Virus record (IMG/VR): IMGVR_UViG_3300028591_008352
Location: 1 to 64,000 of that record
Direction: 5' to 3' (one strand)
Source: a virus
Taxonomy: Duplodnaviria; Caudoviricetes
Length of the DNA: 64,000 nt
Part shown: positions 2,491 to 59,005 of the stretch, piece by piece
Layout of the letters: each line of letters opens with the position of its first letter
Numbering within the stretch: position 1 is the first letter of the stretch
Position numbers and translations under genes: made by a program
Notes under the pieces: model-generated
Database searches by the model: none
What the model was told of the DNA's origin: nothing
The model's input: the letters and a program-made list of their open reading frames with translations, nothing else

Positions 2491-3147
2491 TCACATTGTG
2501 TTCTTTGATATTGCTCCCTTTACTATGAACAGCTGCAGGATATCTTCTTTATCAATCTCAAAGCTGTCATAGTCCTTGTTCTCTGACACGCACAAAACAC
2601 GTGAATTGTCAGAACCCTGCCTCAGATACTTCACCATCCTGTTGCCTTTCTTTGTGATGACGAGGTAGACGTTTCCATAGTCGATGAAACTCTCAGTCCA
2701 TTGTTTCAGGATAATTATCTGCCCATTCTTGTATAGCGGAGACATGGAGTCACCGTATAGATTCACGGCATCCGTACAATCCTTGAACTCGGGGATTGAT
2801 ATGTCAATGAACCTTTTCGTGTCGTTGTCATTGAACAACTCAATTCCACCTCCAGTAGCATCAATGTCAACCCAGTACCGTATCATCGAGAACTGCTCGC
2901 TTTCGTCTGGCTCTTTTAGCATATCACCCTCACCCAAAATCAGCCACTGGAGATTAAACACGCTTCCGAACGCCTCATTGAAACGACGAAGGAAGTTATC
3001 AGTTAGTACATTTTCAACGCCCTTCATTGCCTTAGACACATTAGAAGCCGTTGACTGCATTCTGTTTGCCACTTCTTCTTGCGTATGAATTATCCCTCTG
3101 CTTCGGAGATAATTATAGGCCTTTTGAAATCTTTCTTTTCTGTTCAT
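2491..3147 (-). CDS. CI-like repressor (HTH + S24 autopeptidase)
   Basis: HTH (TQEEVANRMQSTASNVSK), NLQWLILGEG, Ser/Lys dyad in GDSMSP and MVKYL; start MNRKERF at 3147. Confidence 0.92.
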   Translation of the reverse strand: MNRKERFQKAYNYLRSRGIIHTQEEVANRMQSTASNVSKAMKGVENVLTDNFLRRFNEAFGSVFNLQWLILGEGDMLKEPDESEQFSMIRYWVDIDATGGGIELFNDNDTKRFIDISIPEFKDCTDAVNLYGDSMSPLYKNGQIIILKQWTESFIDYGNVYLVITKKGNRMVKYLRQGSDNSRVLCVSENKDYDSFEIDKEDILQLFIVKGAISKNTM

Positions 3148-3243
3148 AACCACTTTTCTTGTTGTCAAATTATTAAATTTTCTTAATATAACAATAAATA
3201 TTGCTATTTCTTTTTGTAATAACAAGTAATGTTGTTATCTTTG
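3146..3243. promoter_or_regulatory. cI/cro switch: operators ATAACAA-N6-TTG(C/T)TAT and rightward promoter
   Basis: Palindromes at 3188-3207 and 3219-3238, degenerate copy at 3146-3165. Bacteroidetes promoter TTTG (3213-3216)-19 bp-TATCTTTG (3236-3243). Confidence 0.75.
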
Positions 3244-3315: not shown

Positions 3316-3555
3316 ATGGAAGAAAAGACATTCAAACAAATTTACGAGGGAGTAGCAAAACGCCCACCACTCCCTACTCCACGTAAGGAGTTTCTCAGCC
3401 GAATAGCTGAGTTGACCAAGAAGTCGGAAACAACTGTTAAGATGTGGGTGATAGGCAGACAGACACCAGATGCCCTTACTCAATCGGTTCTTGCAAAGGA
3501 ATTCGGTATCCCTGCGCATATTCTATTTCCAACGAAGTGTGAGAATCCAATCTAA
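3316..3555 (+). CDS. Cro-like HTH protein
   Basis: 79 aa, divergent from cI; IAELTKKSETTVKMWVIGRQTPD HTH pattern. Confidence 0.8.
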   Translation: MEEKTFKQIYEGVAKRPPLPTPRKEFLSRIAELTKKSETTVKMWVIGRQTPDALTQSVLAKEFGIPAHILFPTKCENPI

Positions 3556-3561
3556 AAGCAA

Positions 3562-3577
3562 ACGCAATACTGGTATG
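3562..3577 (+). promoter_or_regulatory. sRNA target site 1 (ACGCAATACTGGTATG), ends on ATG 3575
   Basis: 15/16 Watson-Crick plus 1 G:U to 58778-58793. Confidence 0.75.
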
Positions 3578-3856
3578 AGAATTACGAAATCAATGGTATC
3601 GAAATGGCTCGATACCGAAAGCAAAAAAGGAAATTTCCTGATGGACGGCGAGGGTACCGTTACGAGACGGGAAGTCATCCTCATGCATACCATCATCCTA
3701 TTCGTTCTGGGTGGAGCCACCGCAATCGAGGATTCCATCTGGTTATCAGCTTTGTTCTTCATTGCCGCGTCTTTGGCAGTGAAGCGACTCAACAGGATCG
3801 ACAAAACCAAGCAATCATGGCAACAGAAGAATTCAACCAAATCAACGAGCGACTGA
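3575..3856 (+). CDS. Small membrane protein (2 predicted TM helices)
   Basis: MRITKSMVSK...; hydrophobic VILMHTIILFVLGGA and IWLSALFFIAASLAV; overlaps the xis start. Confidence 0.6.
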   Translation: MRITKSMVSKWLDTESKKGNFLMDGEGTVTRREVILMHTIILFVLGGATAIEDSIWLSALFFIAASLAVKRLNRIDKTKQSWQQKNSTKSTSD

Positions 3857-10397: not shown

Positions 10398-10413
10398 ACG
10401 CAATATTGATATG
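10398..10413 (+). promoter_or_regulatory. sRNA target site 2 (ACGCAATATTGATATG), ends on the pcfK-like ATG
   Basis: 15/16 Watson-Crick plus 1 G:U to the sRNA. Confidence 0.75.
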
Positions 10414-10941
10414 GCAACAAAGAACGAACCAAAGAAAGAGCAGGAGCAGAAGAAGTCAGCTCCGGCAAAAGGCGGGAAGGTTTCAGACACCTTCAAGACA
10501 ACCATCAAGGCATACCTCGACAAGCGAGCTGCCGAAGATGAACTATTCGCCAAGACTTACGCCAAGGAGAACAAGAACCTTGACGAGTGTTGTAACTACA
10601 TTCTCCAGCAGGTACAGAAGTCGGGCTGCATGGGATTTGCCGACGAGGAAATCTACGGCATGGCAGTCCACTACTACGACGAGGATGACATCAAGAATGT
10701 GAAGCCTGTATCGGCAGGAAAGATTGTCGTTAACCACGTTGTAGAGCTCTCTGAGGCAGAAAAAGCCGAAGCAAAGGAGAAAGCCAAGGCTGACTATGAA
10801 AAGGAGCAGCTGGCAAAGCTGAAGGAGGAAGAGCGCAAGCGTGAGGAAAAGGAGCGCAAGCGCATGGAAGAGCGCAAGCGGAAGGCCCAGGAAGCCGCCG
10901 AGCGCCAGAAGTCATTGCAACTATCACTATTTGAACTTTAG
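10411..10941 (+). CDS. PcfK-like protein
   Basis: FKTTIKAYLDKRAAEDELFAKTYAKENKNLDECCNYI...GFADEEIYGMAVHYYDE; ends QLSLFEL. Confidence 0.88.
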   Translation: MATKNEPKKEQEQKKSAPAKGGKVSDTFKTTIKAYLDKRAAEDELFAKTYAKENKNLDECCNYILQQVQKSGCMGFADEEIYGMAVHYYDEDDIKNVKPVSAGKIVVNHVVELSEAEKAEAKEKAKADYEKEQLAKLKEEERKREEKERKRMEERKRKAQEAAERQKSLQLSLFEL

Positions 10942-23426: not shown

Positions 23427-24683
23427 TCAAACCTTTCTTTCATTGATTCTTAATGTTTCCCTATACTGCTCGGCTTCAGGCACTTTTATGAACTCAACAG
23501 ACTTGTCGAAATTAGCCTTCACAACCTGTTCAATTTCTTCAAGTGTGACGTGAAAAAACTCTTTGCGCCCGTTAATCATATTCATCTTCCTATCATCAAA
23601 GGCACGATGCAAAGCTGCTTCAAGCTTTGGCGCATCATCACAAAATATCATTGCATGAACGTCAAATTTGAACGGAACAGACGCATCACCAAGTTCATCA
23701 ACACGCTCCATCGGATCAAGACGACGTGTCATGCCTATTTTATAGACATTCTCACCAAACGATCCAATATTAGAGATGATATACACATATCCAGCTTTTT
23801 TATTTGCTTCACGATAATCGATGTCTTTCATTGCAACTTCAAGATCCTCCAGATGGCCTTCGATTTCCGTCTTTTTCTGTAACAACAATTCTCTCTCTGT
23901 TTCATCAGCATTGTCAAGTTGCAATTCAATCTTTGCAAGGGCGTTTGTATAATGCTTTTTCTCCTTCTCAATGTCTTTTCTGGCATCTTCGATTTCCTTT
24001 GCCAACTTGGCTTCTTCTCTCAACTGTTCACGAATACGTTTCTGTTCTTCTTTCTCCTCTTGTTTCTTAACTGCATATTCGTACGAAAGATTAAGCTCTT
24101 CTATTTTGGACTTTACATATTCATTTGTCAAGCGTACACAATTCTTAGAATTCATTTTATTAAGTGCATCTGCAGACTTTTCTATCTTTTCCTTAAATGC
24201 GACTATATTGTTAAACTTGACTTTACTAATGAGTACGTCGCATTCATCGTTAAAACAGCGAACTATCTGCTTGATGTTTTGACTGGTCATTGCACGTCCT
24301 TTTGCAATACTACCATCAACTGTCCATTCCTTATCACATACAGCAGCGCAATGGTCACGAATCATTCGTTTTTGTTCAGAACGAACTTCGTCGAGACGTT
24401 CTTTGTAAAGTTCCAAGTTTGCAAAATCGTATATTGGAGAATACAAGCCGTACTCCTGTAGCAATATTGAATCGTCAAGTTCCACTATCTGATCTTTCTT
24501 TTCCTCTATCTCACCAGACAACTTTTCCAATTCGGACTTTAATTCTTCTATGACTTTTTCTAAGCGTGATTTCTCGGTATCAAGATCAGCGATGGCTCGG
24601 TACTTTTCCAAACCACTGACTTGTTCCTTTAATAGCTGTATTTCAACTATCTCCTTTTTCTTTAGGAAATCAAATACTCCCAT
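23427..24683 (-). CDS. DUF4041 + T5orf172 (GIY-YIG-like) domain protein
   Basis: Coiled coil, then GYVYIISNIGSFGENVYKIGMTRRLDPMERVDELGDASVPF...LEAALH...RKEFF. Confidence 0.88.
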   Translation of the reverse strand: MGVFDFLKKKEIVEIQLLKEQVSGLEKYRAIADLDTEKSRLEKVIEELKSELEKLSGEIEEKKDQIVELDDSILLQEYGLYSPIYDFANLELYKERLDEVRSEQKRMIRDHCAAVCDKEWTVDGSIAKGRAMTSQNIKQIVRCFNDECDVLISKVKFNNIVAFKEKIEKSADALNKMNSKNCVRLTNEYVKSKIEELNLSYEYAVKKQEEKEEQKRIREQLREEAKLAKEIEDARKDIEKEKKHYTNALAKIELQLDNADETERELLLQKKTEIEGHLEDLEVAMKDIDYREANKKAGYVYIISNIGSFGENVYKIGMTRRLDPMERVDELGDASVPFKFDVHAMIFCDDAPKLEAALHRAFDDRKMNMINGRKEFFHVTLEEIEQVVKANFDKSVEFIKVPEAEQYRETLRINERKV

Positions 24684-25005: not shown

Positions 25006-25118
25006 CAAAGATACATATTTAATATAAGAGTATAGCAATTTAATATATTAAATATAGTTAAAAGATAGCGTTTTACTATATATAAATTTGGAAGATATAG
25101 CGATTTACTATATCTTTG
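25006..25118. promoter_or_regulatory. Second divergent switch: two promoters, three operators
   Basis: TATAGCnnTTTAnTATA-like palindromes at 25031, 25064, 25096. Leftward -7 TATCTTTG at 25006-25013. Rightward TTTG (25087)-20 bp-TATCTTTG (25111). Confidence 0.75.
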
Positions 25119-25714: not shown

Positions 25715-25777
25715 AACAGGAAGCATCCCCTACCCCAAAGACGCAATACTGATATGAACGATTATATATTTCACTAA
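25711..25777 (+). other. Two tandem micro-ORFs (MKQEASPTPKTQY* 25711-25752; MNDYIFH* 25754-25777) spanning sRNA target site 3 (25741-25756)
   Basis: ACGCAATACTGATATG is a 16/16 complement of the sRNA and covers the stop of micro-ORF 1 and the start of micro-ORF 2. Confidence 0.55.
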
Positions 25778-25791
25778 TCAAATTATAAACA

Positions 25792-26511
25792 ATGGAAACA
25801 GCAATCCAAGTATTCAACAACCCGCAATTCGGAGACATCCGAGTAATAACCGACGAGAATGGACAAATCCTTTTTGTAGGAAAGGATATAGCGAAAGCTC
25901 TGGGGTATGCTAACCCTCGAAACGCTTTGAAAGCCCATGTGGATGCAGAGGACAAAACCACCGCCCCGATTCAGGGCAGTGGTTCGAACTACAAAACCCG
26001 TGCTGTGCTTATCAACGAGTCTGGCTTCTACGCTCTTGTCCTTTCGTCAAAGTTACCCCAAGCCAAGCGGATCAAGCGTTGGGTGACGAGCGAGGTTCTT
26101 CCGGCCATCCGCCGCACTGGAGCCTACGCCGTGCCCAATCCCGCCGTCACCGACAGCACGGAGCATCTGCTGGCAGAGCTGCGCGACACACGCACACAGG
26201 ATGCCGAGAAGCTGCTGCGCAAGCACGTCAACGCCTTCAATAAGCGGCTGAGGGAGTATGTGACAGAAGGCCGCTATTTCTTAGGCCACAACTACGGCCC
26301 TCTGAGCCGTGAGCAGTCGGGAATAGTGCTGCCTCCCGGCATAAGCTTCGAACAGGCTTTGAAGTCGCTCTTCGCCCAGCTCGACGAGGCATTCCTGGCC
26401 TTCTATAGCCTGAACCACGGCTTTGCAAAGGGAGAAACAGCCATGCAGATGCGACTGGAGGCAATGAGAGAGCAGATTTCGCTCCTCGGAAAAATGGCTG
26501 GCGTCATCTGA
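25792..26511 (+). CDS. BRO-N domain antirepressor-like protein
   Basis: IQVFNNPQFGDIRVI...FVGKDIAKALGYANP...INESGFYALVLSSKLPQAKRIKRWVTSEVLPAIRRTGAY. Confidence 0.92.
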   Translation: METAIQVFNNPQFGDIRVITDENGQILFVGKDIAKALGYANPRNALKAHVDAEDKTTAPIQGSGSNYKTRAVLINESGFYALVLSSKLPQAKRIKRWVTSEVLPAIRRTGAYAVPNPAVTDSTEHLLAELRDTRTQDAEKLLRKHVNAFNKRLREYVTEGRYFLGHNYGPLSREQSGIVLPPGISFEQALKSLFAQLDEAFLAFYSLNHGFAKGETAMQMRLEAMREQISLLGKMAGVI

Positions 26512-27197: not shown

Positions 27198-27704
27198 ATG
27201 AAGTACAGCGAACAGACCATCGCCGCCATAGCGGATGCCATCAAGGACGGCGAGACCGTCGAGACCGCCTGCAAGATAGCCGGGATTACCAAGACCACCT
27301 TCTACGAATGGATGGCGGACGAGGGAAAAACGGACTTTGCTGACGCCATAAAAAAGGCCAAGGACGAGTTCCAGAAGACGATCGTCGGCAGGCTGGAGCA
27401 CTCCCTTTGGAAGAAGGCGCTCGGCTTCGAGTTCGAGGAGAGGAAGACGGAGACCAACAAGGATGGTGTGACTACCAAGAAGACTGTAGTCAAGAAATAC
27501 TATCCCCCCGACACCGCTGCCCTGATATTCGCCCTTACAAACGTAGCTCCCGAGCAGTGGAAGAACCGCCAGAACATAGAGGCGACGGGCAGGGACGGGA
27601 GAGACCTATACCCCCGCCAGAGCATCGACATGGACAAGCTGACGGCCGAGCAGCGTGAGCTCCTGCTTTCCATCGGCACGGAAATCATCAACAGGAAGGA
27701 ATGA
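27198..27704 (+). CDS. Terminase small subunit
   Basis: N-terminal HTH (ETACKIAGITKTTFYEW), PPDTAALIFALTN; overlaps terL. Confidence 0.85.
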   Translation: MKYSEQTIAAIADAIKDGETVETACKIAGITKTTFYEWMADEGKTDFADAIKKAKDEFQKTIVGRLEHSLWKKALGFEFEERKTETNKDGVTTKKTVVKKYYPPDTAALIFALTNVAPEQWKNRQNIEATGRDGRDLYPRQSIDMDKLTAEQRELLLSIGTEIINRKE

Positions 27705-29164
27705 GCATCGACTATACGGAGCTGGCAATAGCAGCGGTGGCAGACGAGTGCAGGAGGAGCTTCTTCTACTTCGTCAGGACCTTCTGGGACGTCATCATCA
27801 AGGAGGAGCCCGTGTACAACTGGCACATCCCCTACCTTTGCGGTGAGCTCCAGAGGCTTTCCGTGTCCATCGTGGAGCGACGGCCGAAGCCGTATGACCT
27901 CATCATCAACATTCCCCCTGGCACCACCAAGTCCACCATCGTGACCGTGATGTGGCCCGTATGGCTGTGGACGCAGGACCCCAGCATCCGCATCATCACC
28001 AACTCATATTCTGGTGCCCTCTCCATCGACCATGCCACCAAGAGCAAGGACATCATCGAGAGCGACAAGTTCAGGATGCTGTACCCGGAGATAAGGATAC
28101 GCCGCGACAAGAGCGGCAAGCAGAACTATGAGAACACCGAGACGGGCTACCGCTACGCCACCTCCACGGGTGCCACCATCACTGGCTTCCACGCGCACGT
28201 CATCATCAATGACGACCCCGTGAACCCCAAGCAGGCCGAATCGGAGCAGATGCGAACCGCCGCAAACGAGCACACTAAGACACTTTCCTCACGTAAGGTT
28301 GACAAGGCCAATACGCCTGTGGTCACCATCATGCAGCGACTCCATGAGGAAGACGTGACCGGCTACCTGTTGAAGAAGAAGGGCGAGAACATCCGCCACA
28401 TCTGCCTCCCCGCCGAGCTTTCGGACAACGTAAGGCCCGCGGAGCTGAGAAGCAACTACGTGGACGGGCTCCTCGACCCCGTGCGACTTCCGAGGAAGGT
28501 TCTTGAGGAAGCCAAGACTGACCTCGGCAGCAGGGGCTACGCCGGGCAGTACGAACAGACGCCGACGGCAGCTGGCGGCAACATCATCAAGGAGTCCTGG
28601 TTCAGGCACGTCAGCAAGGCCGACTACCACGCCCTGCATTTCCGTGAGCCTGTACACTTCTTCCTCGACACGGCCTACAACAAGAAGCAGAAGAGCGACA
28701 ACGACCCCTCTGGCATCCTCGGGGCGTGCAAGATACGGAACAACATCTACATCACCTGCGCACAGAAGGTTTACAAGGAGTTCCCCGACCTGATACGGTT
28801 CCTGCCAGAGTTCATGGCGGCGAACGACGCCAGCGGCGAGAGCACGCTGAGGATAGAGCCGAAGGCAAACGGAATGAGCGTCTGCCAGCAGCTGCAGGAG
28901 GTGAGCTCGCTCAACGTCACCTACACCCCATCCCCCACCGACGCGAAGGACACGCGCCTCTATGCCGTCGCCCCGAAGGTGGAGTGCGGACGCGTTTACT
29001 TGGTGGAGGGCGACTGGAACGAAGAGTTCATTGACGAGGTCTGCGGCTTCCCCGCCAAGACCCACGACGAATACGTCGACATCCTCGGCTATGCCATCAA
29101 CTATTTCACGGAGGAAAGCTTCGAGGTGCCCGAGTATGCCGGCAGCATGTTAGCGATAACGTAG
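27701..29164 (+). CDS. terL: Terminase large subunit
   Basis: INIPPGTTKST (Walker A), INDDPVNP (Walker B), nuclease LDTAY...HDEYVD. Confidence 0.93.
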   Translation: MSIDYTELAIAAVADECRRSFFYFVRTFWDVIIKEEPVYNWHIPYLCGELQRLSVSIVERRPKPYDLIINIPPGTTKSTIVTVMWPVWLWTQDPSIRIITNSYSGALSIDHATKSKDIIESDKFRMLYPEIRIRRDKSGKQNYENTETGYRYATSTGATITGFHAHVIINDDPVNPKQAESEQMRTAANEHTKTLSSRKVDKANTPVVTIMQRLHEEDVTGYLLKKKGENIRHICLPAELSDNVRPAELRSNYVDGLLDPVRLPRKVLEEAKTDLGSRGYAGQYEQTPTAAGGNIIKESWFRHVSKADYHALHFREPVHFFLDTAYNKKQKSDNDPSGILGACKIRNNIYITCAQKVYKEFPDLIRFLPEFMAANDASGESTLRIEPKANGMSVCQQLQEVSSLNVTYTPSPTDAKDTRLYAVAPKVECGRVYLVEGDWNEEFIDEVCGFPAKTHDEYVDILGYAINYFTEESFEVPEYAGSMLAIT

Positions 29165-34368: not shown

Positions 34369-34647
34369 CTATCTTATTTGTTTGTTAGTGCATACCAACA
34401 CGTCACCCACGATGAAGTCACCATCATACAGTAAACTTTCAGCCAGTTCCGTTGCCTTGTCATTCACGGGAAGACCTTCAAACTTGCCTTCCTCGTTCAT
34501 CACAATCACCTCTCCGTCATCATTCATCAAGTAGAAAAGCTGGATGTAGCCACCCACAATCTTCTGCATTTCCTCGAGTTGGAAATCCGTGCCGTTCTTC
34601 GGCTCTACGGGAATAATCTCACCGTTTGTCTTAATAATTCTTGCCAT
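34369..34647 (-). CDS. DUF3846 domain protein
   Basis: LEEMQKIVGGYIQ...VIVMNEEGKFEGLPVNDKAT...FIVGDVLV. Confidence 0.85.
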   Translation of the reverse strand: MARIIKTNGEIIPVEPKNGTDFQLEEMQKIVGGYIQLFYLMNDDGEVIVMNEEGKFEGLPVNDKATELAESLLYDGDFIVGDVLVCTNKQIR

Positions 34648-34660
34648 ATCAATATTGCGT
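34645..34660 (-). promoter_or_regulatory. sRNA target site 4 (ACGCAATATTGATATG), ends on the DUF3846 ATG
   Basis: 15/16 Watson-Crick plus 1 G:U. Confidence 0.75.
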
Positions 34661-34698
34661 TTATTGTGGGGAGTTGGTTAGGCTCCCCGTTACCTATG

Positions 34699-35432: not shown

Positions 35433-35588
35433 TTACTTGTTAATAAAAAGGTTGATGTACTTTGCCAGTCCGTACATAACGATTCCGCTGTTCATGTCAT
35501 TCGACTTCCTGGCGACAAAGTTTCTCATGCCACGCTCCGTCTTGAAGCTCTTGGTCTTTCCCGTGATAAATAATACCTTAAATTCCAT
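35433..35588 (-). CDS. Small basic protein, first gene of the leftward operon
   Basis: MEFKVLFITGKTKSFKTERG...; ATG at 35588. Confidence 0.6.
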   Translation of the reverse strand: MEFKVLFITGKTKSFKTERGMRNFVARKSNDMNSGIVMYGLAKYINLFINK

Positions 35589-35601
35589 ATCTGTATTGCG
35601 T
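35586..35601 (-). promoter_or_regulatory. sRNA target site 5 (ACGCAATACAGATATG)
   Basis: 15/16 complementary, with one A:A mismatch. Confidence 0.7.
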
Positions 35602-35609
35602 TTTGTTGT

Positions 35610-35643
35610 GTGCTTATTAAGCACGTTTGGTGTTGCAAATTTA
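35610..35643 (-). promoter_or_regulatory. Leftward promoter TAAATTTG with downstream palindrome GTGCTT-ATT-AAGCAC
   Basis: -7 element at 35636-35643 (minus strand); palindrome at 35610-35624. Confidence 0.65.
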
Positions 35644-35740
35644 TAGAATATGTTTAATATATGCAAGTATTTAAGCTAAATATTTAAATTTAAGGCAAAT
35701 ATTTAAGAAAGTTTAACTTTATAATTAATTCAAAATAATA

Positions 35741-35781
35741 ATGCTTATTAAGCACCTTTTCGAAAAATATGTCTATATTTG
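35741..35781 (+). promoter_or_regulatory. Head-operon promoter: ATGCTT-ATT-AAGCAC at the -33 position plus TATATTTG
   Basis: Palindrome at 35741-35755; -7 element at 35774-35781. Confidence 0.7.
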
Positions 35782-40552: not shown

Positions 40553-40625
40553 CGCGGTGTGGAGCAGTTGGCAGCTCGCTTGGCTCATAACCAAGAGGTC
40601 GGGGGTTCGAGTCCTCCCTCCGCAA
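40553..40625 (+). tRNA. tRNA-Met (CAT), initiator-type; CCA not encoded
   Basis: Full cloverleaf: C1:A72 mismatch, D arm GAGC/GCTC, anticodon stem CTTGG/CCAAG with loop CTCATAA (CAT at 40586-40588), TTCGA T-loop. Confidence 0.93.
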
Positions 40626-57874: not shown

Positions 57875-58139
57875 AGAGTTCAAGCGTGTAGAATTCGTGG
57901 AATACATGCCCCATGAGAAAGAGCCGGGAGTGCTTTATGTGAGTATGCGTTTCGGCCTGGTTATCTGCAAGTGTCCGTGCGGCTGTGGCATCGATGCGGT
58001 AATGCCTATCAAGCCCAAGTCATACGGATGGGACTACATCGAAAAGGACGGCAAGGTTACTCTATCCCCCTCTGTGGCTACCAACTGCCCAAACAAGGCG
58101 CACTTCTTTATTCGTGATAACAAAATCCAATGGTTATGA
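57861..58139 (+). CDS. DUF6527-like Cys-rich protein
   Basis: EPGVLYVS...CKCPCGCG...W...VTLSPSV...CPNKAHFFIRDNKIQW. Confidence 0.75.
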   Translation: MEKPKEFKRVEFVEYMPHEKEPGVLYVSMRFGLVICKCPCGCGIDAVMPIKPKSYGWDYIEKDGKVTLSPSVATNCPNKAHFFIRDNKIQWL

Positions 58140-58741
58140 AAAAGAGAATTGTTCCGCTCCTGCTTCTGGCATCCGTATTGCTGAATCTGGTGCTGCTGAA
58201 TCAGATGTTTAAGCCAGAGCAGGGAGAGGTGGTCACAGACACCACTACCGTTGTCAGCACATTTGTTCCCGATTCTGCTGCAGACAGCAGCTTTGTTGAG
58301 TGTAGGGACTATAAAATCCCTGCTTCAGCAATAAAAGTGCGTGGAAATGGAACGAAAGCTGTTAATTCTGGAACGAAAAGTGTTAATTCTGGAACAGAAA
58401 CAGCAGAAAATGGAAATTTTCAGTCAGATTCTGTCAATTCCATGACCGACTCTCTTACTATCCAGATGAACGGTGACAGCGTGACCGTAACACTTCCTAT
58501 TACTCAGAAGGTGTATTCTGATTCCACCTACACGGCATACGTCAGCGGATTTGATGCGAAGCTCGACAGCATCAGCGTGTATAGCAAGATGATCACCGTC
58601 ACAAGAAGGGAGCCTACCCCGGCGTTCACATTAGGAGTGCAGGCTGGGTACGGAATAACCCCTGCAGGGATGCAGCCATACATCGGTTTGGGAGTCCAGT
58701 ATAACTTTTCCCTATCCAAAATTTGGCCATTCCGAAAATAA
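58130..58741 (+). CDS. Membrane-anchored spanin-like lysis accessory protein
   Basis: N-terminal TM; LPITQKVYSDSTYTAYVSG..A.LDSI; GVQAGYG...PYIGLGVQY; 21-bp GTKxVNS repeats at ~58349-58400. Confidence 0.7.
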   Translation: MVMKKRIVPLLLLASVLLNLVLLNQMFKPEQGEVVTDTTTVVSTFVPDSAADSSFVECRDYKIPASAIKVRGNGTKAVNSGTKSVNSGTETAENGNFQSDSVNSMTDSLTIQMNGDSVTVTLPITQKVYSDSTYTAYVSGFDAKLDSISVYSKMITVTRREPTPAFTLGVQAGYGITPAGMQPYIGLGVQYNFSLSKIWPFRK

Positions 58742-58753
58742 TGACTACATTTG
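58722..58753 (+). promoter_or_regulatory. Consensus promoter for the sRNA: TTTG-N20-TACATTTG
   Basis: TTTG at 58722-58725, TACATTTG at 58746-58753; predicted +1 at G58758. Confidence 0.8.
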
Positions 58754-58757
58754 CACC

Positions 58758-58831
58758 GTCTGATAATGTTTTTAGGACATATCAGTATTGCGTATAGCCC
58801 CTGTGTCCTTCATCAGGCATGGGGGCTTTTT
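58758..58831 (+). ncRNA. Predicted trans-acting antisense sRNA (~74 nt)
   Basis: Own promoter and terminator, no ORF. Nt 58778-58793 (CAUAUCAGUAUUGCGU) are complementary to five start-codon regions elsewhere in the prophage. Confidence 0.75.
58796..58831 (+). terminator. Intrinsic terminator of the sRNA / late operon
   Basis: 12-bp stem AGCCCCTGTGTC / GGCATGGGGGCT (3 G:U), 8-nt loop, U5. Confidence 0.85.
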
Positions 58832-58861
58832 CAGTCCGAAAAGAGCTGTTTTTCAACACTT

Positions 58862-58882
58862 TTGTTGCTGGATTGTTGCTCG
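58862..58882. promoter_or_regulatory. Putative integrase arm sites near attR
   Basis: TTGTTGCT x2, the second extending to TTGTTGCTCG as at 286-295. Confidence 0.55.
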
Positions 58883-58941
58883 GAGATTTGTGACAGCTTC
58901 AAAATTTATTGATAATCAGGTGATTTACAGCTACTTACGTA

Positions 58942-58959
58942 ATTTCTGCGTCGGCAAGT
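58942..58959 (+). repeat. attR (core TGCGTCGG at 58947-58954)
   Basis: AAT TTC TGC GTC GGC AAG TGA = NFCVGK*, duplicating the mnmE end. Confidence 0.88.
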
Positions 58960-59005
58960 GACCCCTTATAAACAACTCTGAGCAACTTGGAGTAATTTGA
59001 ACTAT

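Follow-up and report, generated by a model that had tools for sequence, protein, structure and literature searches.

Why does the right-hand end of a prophage hold the exact complement of a 16-nt sequence that ends on the start codons of phage genes lying ~23-55 kb away, and could a single small RNA made there act on all of them? The DNA analysed here (the window) makes up the initial 64 kb of a record of 77,105 bp and opens in the 3′ end of an mnmE-like gene. The prophage spans ~150 to 58942; the end of mnmE (..TGCGTCGGnAAGT..) is present twice, at 118-143 and at 58943-58963, and contigs from other samples part from the window exactly at 58942. The nearest relatives are found in Prevotella MAGs of ruminants, phage DNA is present in sheep and bovine gut runs, and no DNA match was obtained among cultured phages; the host belongs to the Bacteroidales of rumen or gut, and within these is probably Prevotella. 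The prophage is framed by the following features.

264-1472, left end: tyrosine integrase
left end: HTH_17 excisionase-like gene
2491-3225, minus strand: S24 CI-like repressor
3316-3555, left end: small cro-like gene
right of the left-end genes: SbcC-like ATPase
27701-29164: TerL
58130-58741, plus strand: DUF6808 gene of the lysis cassette, the synteny anchor directly 5′ of the RNA gene
58862-58963, plus strand: arm-site and junction context, with two TTGTTGCT repeats, the phage/host junction at ~58942 and the duplicated mnmE 3′ end

Further to the right the order is SbcC-like ATPase, PcfK/PcfJ-like genes, Bro-N/Ant, TerL, large tail genes and DUF6808, which in related phages is immediately preceded by an amidase gene. 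The TTGTTGCT repeat occurs eight times in the window, and five of these copies are at the prophage ends (286 plus, 306 minus and 315 minus beside the integrase gene; 58862 plus and 58873 plus beside attR), where they are likely to be arm-type sites of the integrase; TTGTTGCTGGATTGTTGCT is also found 3′ of the RNA gene in two related loci, L053 and L069. At 59004 the contigs of four runs depart from the window into a terminator hairpin (AGTCCCTC..GAGGGACTTTTTG), and therefore the window may hold a second inserted element right after mnmE, with minus-strand genes from 59074. Two other genes are recorded in passing: a tRNA gene (58 bits) at 40553-40625, within the tail-gene region, and a T5orf172/MUG113 + DUF4041 gene at 23427-24683 on the minus strand, placed between the early genes and the packaging region in the opposite orientation, which is moron-like in appearance and possibly encodes a defence-type nuclease.

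The sequence that follows the DUF6808 gene has the parts of a small transcription unit.

58722-58753, plus strand: promoter, with TTTG at -33, an N20 spacer and TACATTTG at -7
58758-58831, plus strand: predicted non-coding RNA of ~74 nt, its start deduced from the promoter and its end set by the U-run
58760-58785, plus strand: 5′ hairpin, whose 3′ arm (ACAUAUCAG) holds the anti-AUG part of the complement
58786-58795, plus strand: single-stranded stretch UAUUGCGUAU, the proposed seed, complementary to the invariant ACGCAAUA of the boxes
58796-58832, plus strand: intrinsic terminator (stem 58796-58827), with a 12-bp stem, an 8-nt loop and a U-run

The promoter read by the first-pass annotation as TTTG-N20-TACATTTG proved to be one of five full-consensus Bacteroidetes promoters in the 64-kb window, where 0.77 are expected. 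Two of the others form the divergent pair of the CI-like and cro-like genes, and one is located at 25087-25118, ~650 nt 5′ of the micro-ORF that precedes ant. The terminator and the ~74-nt non-coding unit described in that annotation also stood: the stem has 12 pairs, and stem and T-run occur together on the plus strand only. From an ATG at 58767 a reading frame extends past the terminator, but in L053, a close homologue, the corresponding frame stops after two codons, and so the unit at 58758-58831 is non-coding. The computed fold (-27.4 kcal/mol, z = -4.0) consists of the hairpin at 58760-58785, the unpaired stretch at 58786-58795 and the terminator, and is the same as the one that had been drawn by hand. 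Considering that it has its own promoter and intrinsic terminator, both kept in nine versions of the unit, 58758-58831 is probably a promoter-to-terminator sRNA gene, as judged from these signals.

The complement held by this unit, at 58778-58793, matches ACGCAATACTGATATG without mismatch. When ACGCAATACTGATATG was sought with up to three mismatches, six sites were found in the window against 0.56 expected, and 0 of 100 shuffled sequences reached six. All six have no more than one mismatch; one is the antisense copy in the RNA gene, and the five others are in mRNA sense and each ends exactly on an ATG, as the first-pass annotation had said. These five are referred to below as boxes.

3562-3577, plus strand: box 1 (ACGCAATACTGGTATG), 1 mismatch, at the start of a 93-codon gene (3575-3856) directly after the cro-like gene
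10398-10413, plus strand: box 2 (ACGCAATATTGATATG), 1 mismatch, at the start of the PcfK-like gene (10411-10941), which is followed by the PcfJ-like gene
25741-25756, plus strand: box 3, perfect (16/16), at the start of a 7-codon micro-ORF (25754-25777)
34645-34660, minus strand: box 4 (ACGCAATATTGATATG), 1 mismatch, at the start of the DUF3846 gene (34369-34647)
35586-35601, minus strand: box 5 (ACGCAATACAGATATG), 1 mismatch, at the start of a 51-codon gene (35433-35588), the first in a leftward operon

The claim of at least five tagged ORFs has to be worded more narrowly, since five ATGs are tagged: four of them open ORFs of 93, 176, 92 and 51 codons, and the fifth opens the 7-codon micro-ORF, which ends 14 nt before the Bro-N/Ant antirepressor gene (25792-26511). 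The targets span ~32 kb and lie on both strands. Several boxes have a stable hairpin on their 5′ side, as does box 4 (GGGGAG..CTCCCC). Two further sequence features were noted near boxes or starts. Between the leftward operon and the gene at 35769 lies a divergent control region (35602-35768) in which a TAAATTTG -7 box is surrounded by several repeats resembling CTTAAATAYTTG; the repeats are candidate operators for a second regulatory switch. A match to the seed at 298-305, 5′ of the integrase start, is not shared by relatives and is compatible with chance.

The four deviating boxes differ from the consensus as had been claimed: A12>G and C9>T (twice) are compatible with G:U pairing, and T10>A is a true mismatch. 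On the one hand, a relative of the phage (G012, see below) contributes one further G:U-compatible case (AUGCAAUA); on the other hand, the three transitions are all G:U-compatible, the bias is not significant once transitions are allowed for (estimated p about 0.2), and the targets in two orthologous groups have a true mismatch at box position 10. The G:U pattern, from which RNA pairing had originally been argued, is thus a statistically weak argument. A duplex-energy scan of the whole 77-kb record placed four boxes near the top and box 5 (-20.7 kcal/mol) within the background; therefore duplex energy alone does not define the regulon.

What would such an RNA do? In Bacteroidetes, start sites rely on an open region before the AUG and not on a Shine-Dalgarno sequence. 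The reading we favour, and hold to be rather probable on the strength of the sequence comparisons, is that the unit is a trans-acting antisense sRNA of a temperate Bacteroidales phage, which would mask the AUG of tagged mRNAs, starting from a seed, and so block the 30S subunit. A strong promoter of its own, located beside attP at the end of the phage, would drive the RNA, which would fold into the 5′ hairpin, the exposed UAUUGCGU seed and the terminator. The seed would bind the invariant ACGCAAUA, located 13 to 6 nt before the AUG of the tagged phage mRNAs, and pairing would then spread into the 3′ arm of the hairpin, cover the AUG and prevent 30S binding. The five tagged genes would probably be silenced together by this one RNA, and ant would be controlled by way of the micro-ORF, which may gate the antirepressor as icd does for ant in P1. 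The first-pass annotation had the RNA silence several lytic operons, which goes too far: the tags are on single early or accessory genes, and the structural and lysis operons are untagged. It is therefore likely that the role is either silencing in the lysogen or a limit on expression to the first minutes after entry. In the first case translation of the tagged genes would be blocked in the lysogen, and likewise in incoming relatives that share the box; equally possible is that early genes are shut off during lytic growth. The tagged genes (pcfK/pcfJ, DUF3846, Ant) are of a type required immediately after the DNA enters the cell, and so the RNA may set when they are expressed.

The same pairing could also have another outcome or another timing, namely activation, stabilization, processing or a late shut-off of early genes. 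T4 RegA is a protein repressor that recognizes a shared element over the AUG of many early phage mRNAs, and a late shut-off by the RNA would be its counterpart: one factor and a shared AUG element would be common to both, with a protein as the recogniser in T4 and apparently an RNA here. The RNA gene is located at the end of the late/lysis region, where late read-through could add to its level, the stable hairpins 5′ of several boxes could be remodelled by pairing, and the sequence data give no pointer to the direction of regulation. Nevertheless, the predicted pairing covers the AUG itself, and in the known cases such pairing blocks initiation; the RNA gene also has its own full-consensus promoter, independent of late transcription. 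We regard this alternative as unlikely, while granting it more weight than those discussed below.

Homologues of the unit were sought by pattern scans of viral and metagenome contigs and by a protein-anchored scan of species genomes, and nine distinct versions were found on viral, genome and metagenome contigs. All nine have the -7 box TAnnTTTG, the 5′ hairpin, the AUUGCGU stretch and a strong terminator. The closing part of the hairpin (CUGAU/AUCAG) and the stretch AUCAGUAUUGCGU are present in every version, whereas the upper hairpin varies: it is AUGU/ACAU in the window, UGCG/CGCA in L025, and has short loops elsewhere. The terminators of the homologues have no sequence relation to each other and cannot be aligned, yet each stem has 11-15 pairs. 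In the alignment of the versions (A2), ATCAGTATTGCGT is invariant, the basal stem is fixed by the complement of the target, and the hairpin tops and terminators are unrelated. The seven versions that were folded gave the same three-part structure with z from -4.0 to -6.3, and AUUGCGU was unpaired in both the minimum free energy and the centroid structure. The earlier suggestion of an exposed toehold that pairs with the invariant part of the targets thus agrees with seven of seven folds and with the invariance of ATCAGTATTGCGT.

The position of the unit is conserved as well. In all seven loci checked (the window, L053, L069, L072, L025, L175 and L291) it lies directly 3′ of the DUF6808 stop, within a few dozen bases, and it adjoins the end of the element wherever that end is visible; in L291 a host cytidine-deaminase-like gene is found on its 3′ side. 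Promoter, fold and position are conserved while the remainder changes freely, which is the pattern of a functional RNA gene. With a covariance model, 3 of the 63 DUF6808 loci searched had a member of the family; among 151 genomes sampled from the host family there was 1, and these counts assign the unit to one phage lineage. Weak matches of the model in L111 and G071 were set aside, their genomes having no matching sites, as were matches in G144, G074 and G123, which are not unit-like. In four Bacteroides phages with DUF6808 homologues, genes come next and there is no unit.

Every phage record that has the unit also has boxes at gene starts.

G012, 100% complete: five boxes (gene after cro, pcfK, the 51-codon gene and two others)
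G011, 99% complete: two boxes detected by the seed (gene after cro and pcfK), the remainder diverged
G002 contig 32, completeness not given: three boxes
G001 contig 58, completeness not given: two boxes
G010, partial: one box
G013, partial: one box

Each box of the window has a counterpart among these records. The slot of box 1, the gene after cro, is also tagged in G012 (29971, minus) and G011 (54179, minus); pcfK (box 2) is tagged in G002, G012 and G011; box 3 is conserved together with the micro-ORF (MNDYIFH) in L005/G013; the DUF3846 start (box 4) is tagged in G001; and box 5 with the same 51-codon gene is found in G002 and G012. At orthologous sites the box is kept and the upstream flanks differ. 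Copies with at most one mismatch that are antisense to local genes or placed off an ATG were not found in these phages, the RNA gene excepted. The first-pass annotation had pointed out that boxes conserved in relatives without the antisense locus would indicate a protein-binding site. Four fragments do have boxes and no unit, but they are 54-68% complete and the DUF6808 end is missing from them too, and so they are not counter-examples to the link between unit and boxes. Lone matches to the box in partial IMG/VR records, and another in G005:C32, are indistinguishable from chance or incompleteness.

Two cases where the RNA and the tag have both changed favour pairing. The RNA of G011 has CUUAUC in place of the CAUAUC of the other versions, and its best target, the small gene that follows cro, has GAUAAG in place of GAUAUG; the duplex consists of 10 pairs, a G:U pair, a mismatch and 7 pairs. 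The other case is a second class of unit after DUF6808, with the 5′ sequence GUUGUUG(C/U)GGA, which was found in L063 (G005:C10:20150-20300), L054 and L057. In the first of these, a prophage of a Muribaculaceae MAG (G005 contig 10), the 5′ part of the unit is another sequence, GUGUUGUUGCGGA, whose complement is the tag CCGCAACAAC(A)ATG. This tag is present on at least five ATGs of the contig, of which four begin ORFs that have no stop within the stretch read and one begins an 11-codon ORF; three copies of the tag are an identical 15-mer. For the units of L054 and L057 a pattern search for the predicted tag gave no clear targets. In L074, a prophage of B. pyogenes DSM 20611 with a unit in the same slot, the single-stranded stretch is different, and gene starts show no enrichment of its complement (of three matches, two fall inside a 1992-codon ORF). 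Within the family of the window no seed variant with matching boxes was found, the seed being invariant, and therefore the covariation of RNA and target, which had been proposed as a check, rests on one lineage-specific change (G011) and one different class (G005).

These two cases bear on a different explanation of the box, namely that it is a binding site for a protein, either a translational operator on the mRNA or a DNA operator, with the antisense copy being incidental or a decoy. The box is bipartite, with ACGCAATA and GATATG around a variable centre, as are many protein sites. However, all boxes are co-oriented with their genes and have a fixed register to the ATG, neither of which a DNA operator needs, and a protein site leaves unexplained the conserved unit of promoter, hairpin, seed and terminator that holds the exact complement in nine versions. 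Nor does it account for the second unit at this slot, which mirrors a tag of its own and is hard to reconcile with a protein operator. The original preference for RNA pairing over a DNA-binding protein is thus supported by the change in G011 and the second tag in G005, and not by the G:U argument on which it was based; we consider a protein-binding site improbable.

A further observation concerns the surroundings of box 4. The hairpin GGGGAGCCTAACCAACTCCCC together with a box stands 5′ of three different genes in three phages (window 34661-34690, G002:C32 ~41250 and G012 ~1730), and on the sequence evidence it looks like a conserved junction where accessory-gene cassettes are swapped. This would suit the idea that the box is a boundary (linker) sequence for cassette exchange between phages and that the small unit is unrelated or a relic, as the same junction precedes DUF3846 in G000, MGQFSW.. 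in G002 and MEDLNK.. in G012; but sixteen bases are very short for recombination, the antisense copy and the conserved fold would have no explanation, and the exchange of cassettes may be a by-product of a shared regulatory tag, all of which makes this idea very improbable.

In one sheep-gut metatranscriptome (X23), a contig spans 58846-59004; the unit is outside its coverage, and the contig is thus evidence neither for nor against expression of the unit. This contig has a depth of 17.6, several-fold above the other pieces of X23; it begins immediately 3′ of the RNA terminator and extends over the phage/host junction as far as the mnmE remnant. It may represent read-through, or a transcript of its own that leads from the phage end into the host DNA, and DNA carry-over is also possible. 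A 90-nt skip across the unit in X2 was disregarded, as one of its sides is just 20 nt long. That the unit is unexpressed, a chance pair of promoter-like and terminator-like sequences around a stray inverted box, would be in line with the lack of an observed transcript, but nine conserved versions at one syntenic slot, with the promoter box kept in all, make such a coincidence hardly credible.

How does an AUG-masking sRNA of this kind compare with known systems? To our knowledge, the phage antisense RNAs described so far (c4, sar, CI and OOP) each act on one locus, and the multi-target prophage sRNAs known to us act on host genes. The immI region of P1 and P7 has the order c4-icd-ant, where a small upstream ORF links the RNA to the antirepressor, and the CI RNA of P4 is related to c4. 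Scanning the whole window against Rfam at gathering scores returned the tRNA only and no family for the unit, and a scan of 58600-59000 under relaxed settings (E up to 10) yielded three matches at chance level, none of them C4; the covariance model of the C4 family likewise gives no match to the unit.

The c4 RNA of phages P1 and P7 is a small trans-acting phage RNA that controls an antirepressor (PMC12197685). Like c4 and P4 CI, the unit is predicted to act in trans on mRNA start regions through exposed complementary stretches. Box 3 is on a 7-codon uORF 14 nt before Bro-N/Ant, an arrangement that resembles c4 and is conserved in L005, and the uORF and ant may be coupled here too; as with c4, the sequence of the RNA could define the specificity of immunity. 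The differences are that c4 is processed from its target operon, whereas the unit has its own promoter and terminator; that c4 has two sites in one leader, whereas here there are at least five dispersed targets in different operons; and that the host phylum is one without Shine-Dalgarno-led initiation. The sar RNA of P22 is a ~70-nt RNA that blocks the translation start of an antirepressor (PMC12197685). The unit is similar to it in size and in its predicted start-site target, but sar is transcribed opposite its single target as a cis-antisense RNA, while the unit lies ~23-55 kb from its targets and has 16 nt in common with them. Nothing codes opposite 58758-58831, which sets the unit apart from cis-antisense RNAs of the P22 sar and lambda OOP type.

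Multi-target trans sRNAs that regulate host genes include DicF, encoded by a prophage (PMC5069750), and GibS of Bacteroides thetaiotaomicron (PMC7366714). Their own promoter, Rho-independent terminator, single-stranded seed and several mRNA start regions as targets are all features that the unit has, or is predicted to have, as well; in sequence, it has the properties expected of a trans sRNA, namely a transcription unit of its own, a conserved single-stranded seed and start-region sites that are conserved in relatives. DicF and GibS use short imperfect matches in host genes, whereas here the phage's own genes have a near-identical 16-nt tag, as if it had been installed for the RNA. It is likely, as far as these comparisons reach, that the RNA is a multi-target antisense sRNA and a variation on the c4/sar type of phage RNA control that belongs to neither family. 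The first-pass annotation knew of no multi-target analogue, and this still holds for the literature searched: a 2025 review of phage sRNAs lists none from Bacteroidetes and no phage-wide regulon of this sort, and a full-text literature search found no description of the unit.

The arrangement may be more general among temperate Bacteroidales phages. In such a 'tag-and-mirror' scheme, a replaceable RNA gene would occupy the slot after the lysis cassette, by attP, and its tag would mark the starts of early, anti-defence-type and antirepressor-gating genes; pairs of RNA and tag would form an RNA-based class of immunity, directed at the phage itself and at incoming relatives, in many lineages and with different tags. 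We offer this generalization tentatively, as a possibility that stands well below the antisense reading of the unit itself.

The locus in the window points to one RNA that would govern a tagged set of the phage's own genes over ~32 kb, in a phylum where little work has been done on sRNAs or on how phages are regulated. Should this be confirmed, it would add a simple RNA layer to the control of lysogeny and immunity in abundant gut and rumen phages, and it would give a reason why unrelated accessory genes have one common start-site tag. The tag and the RNA would also make up a compact and portable repression module for Bacteroidales genetics.
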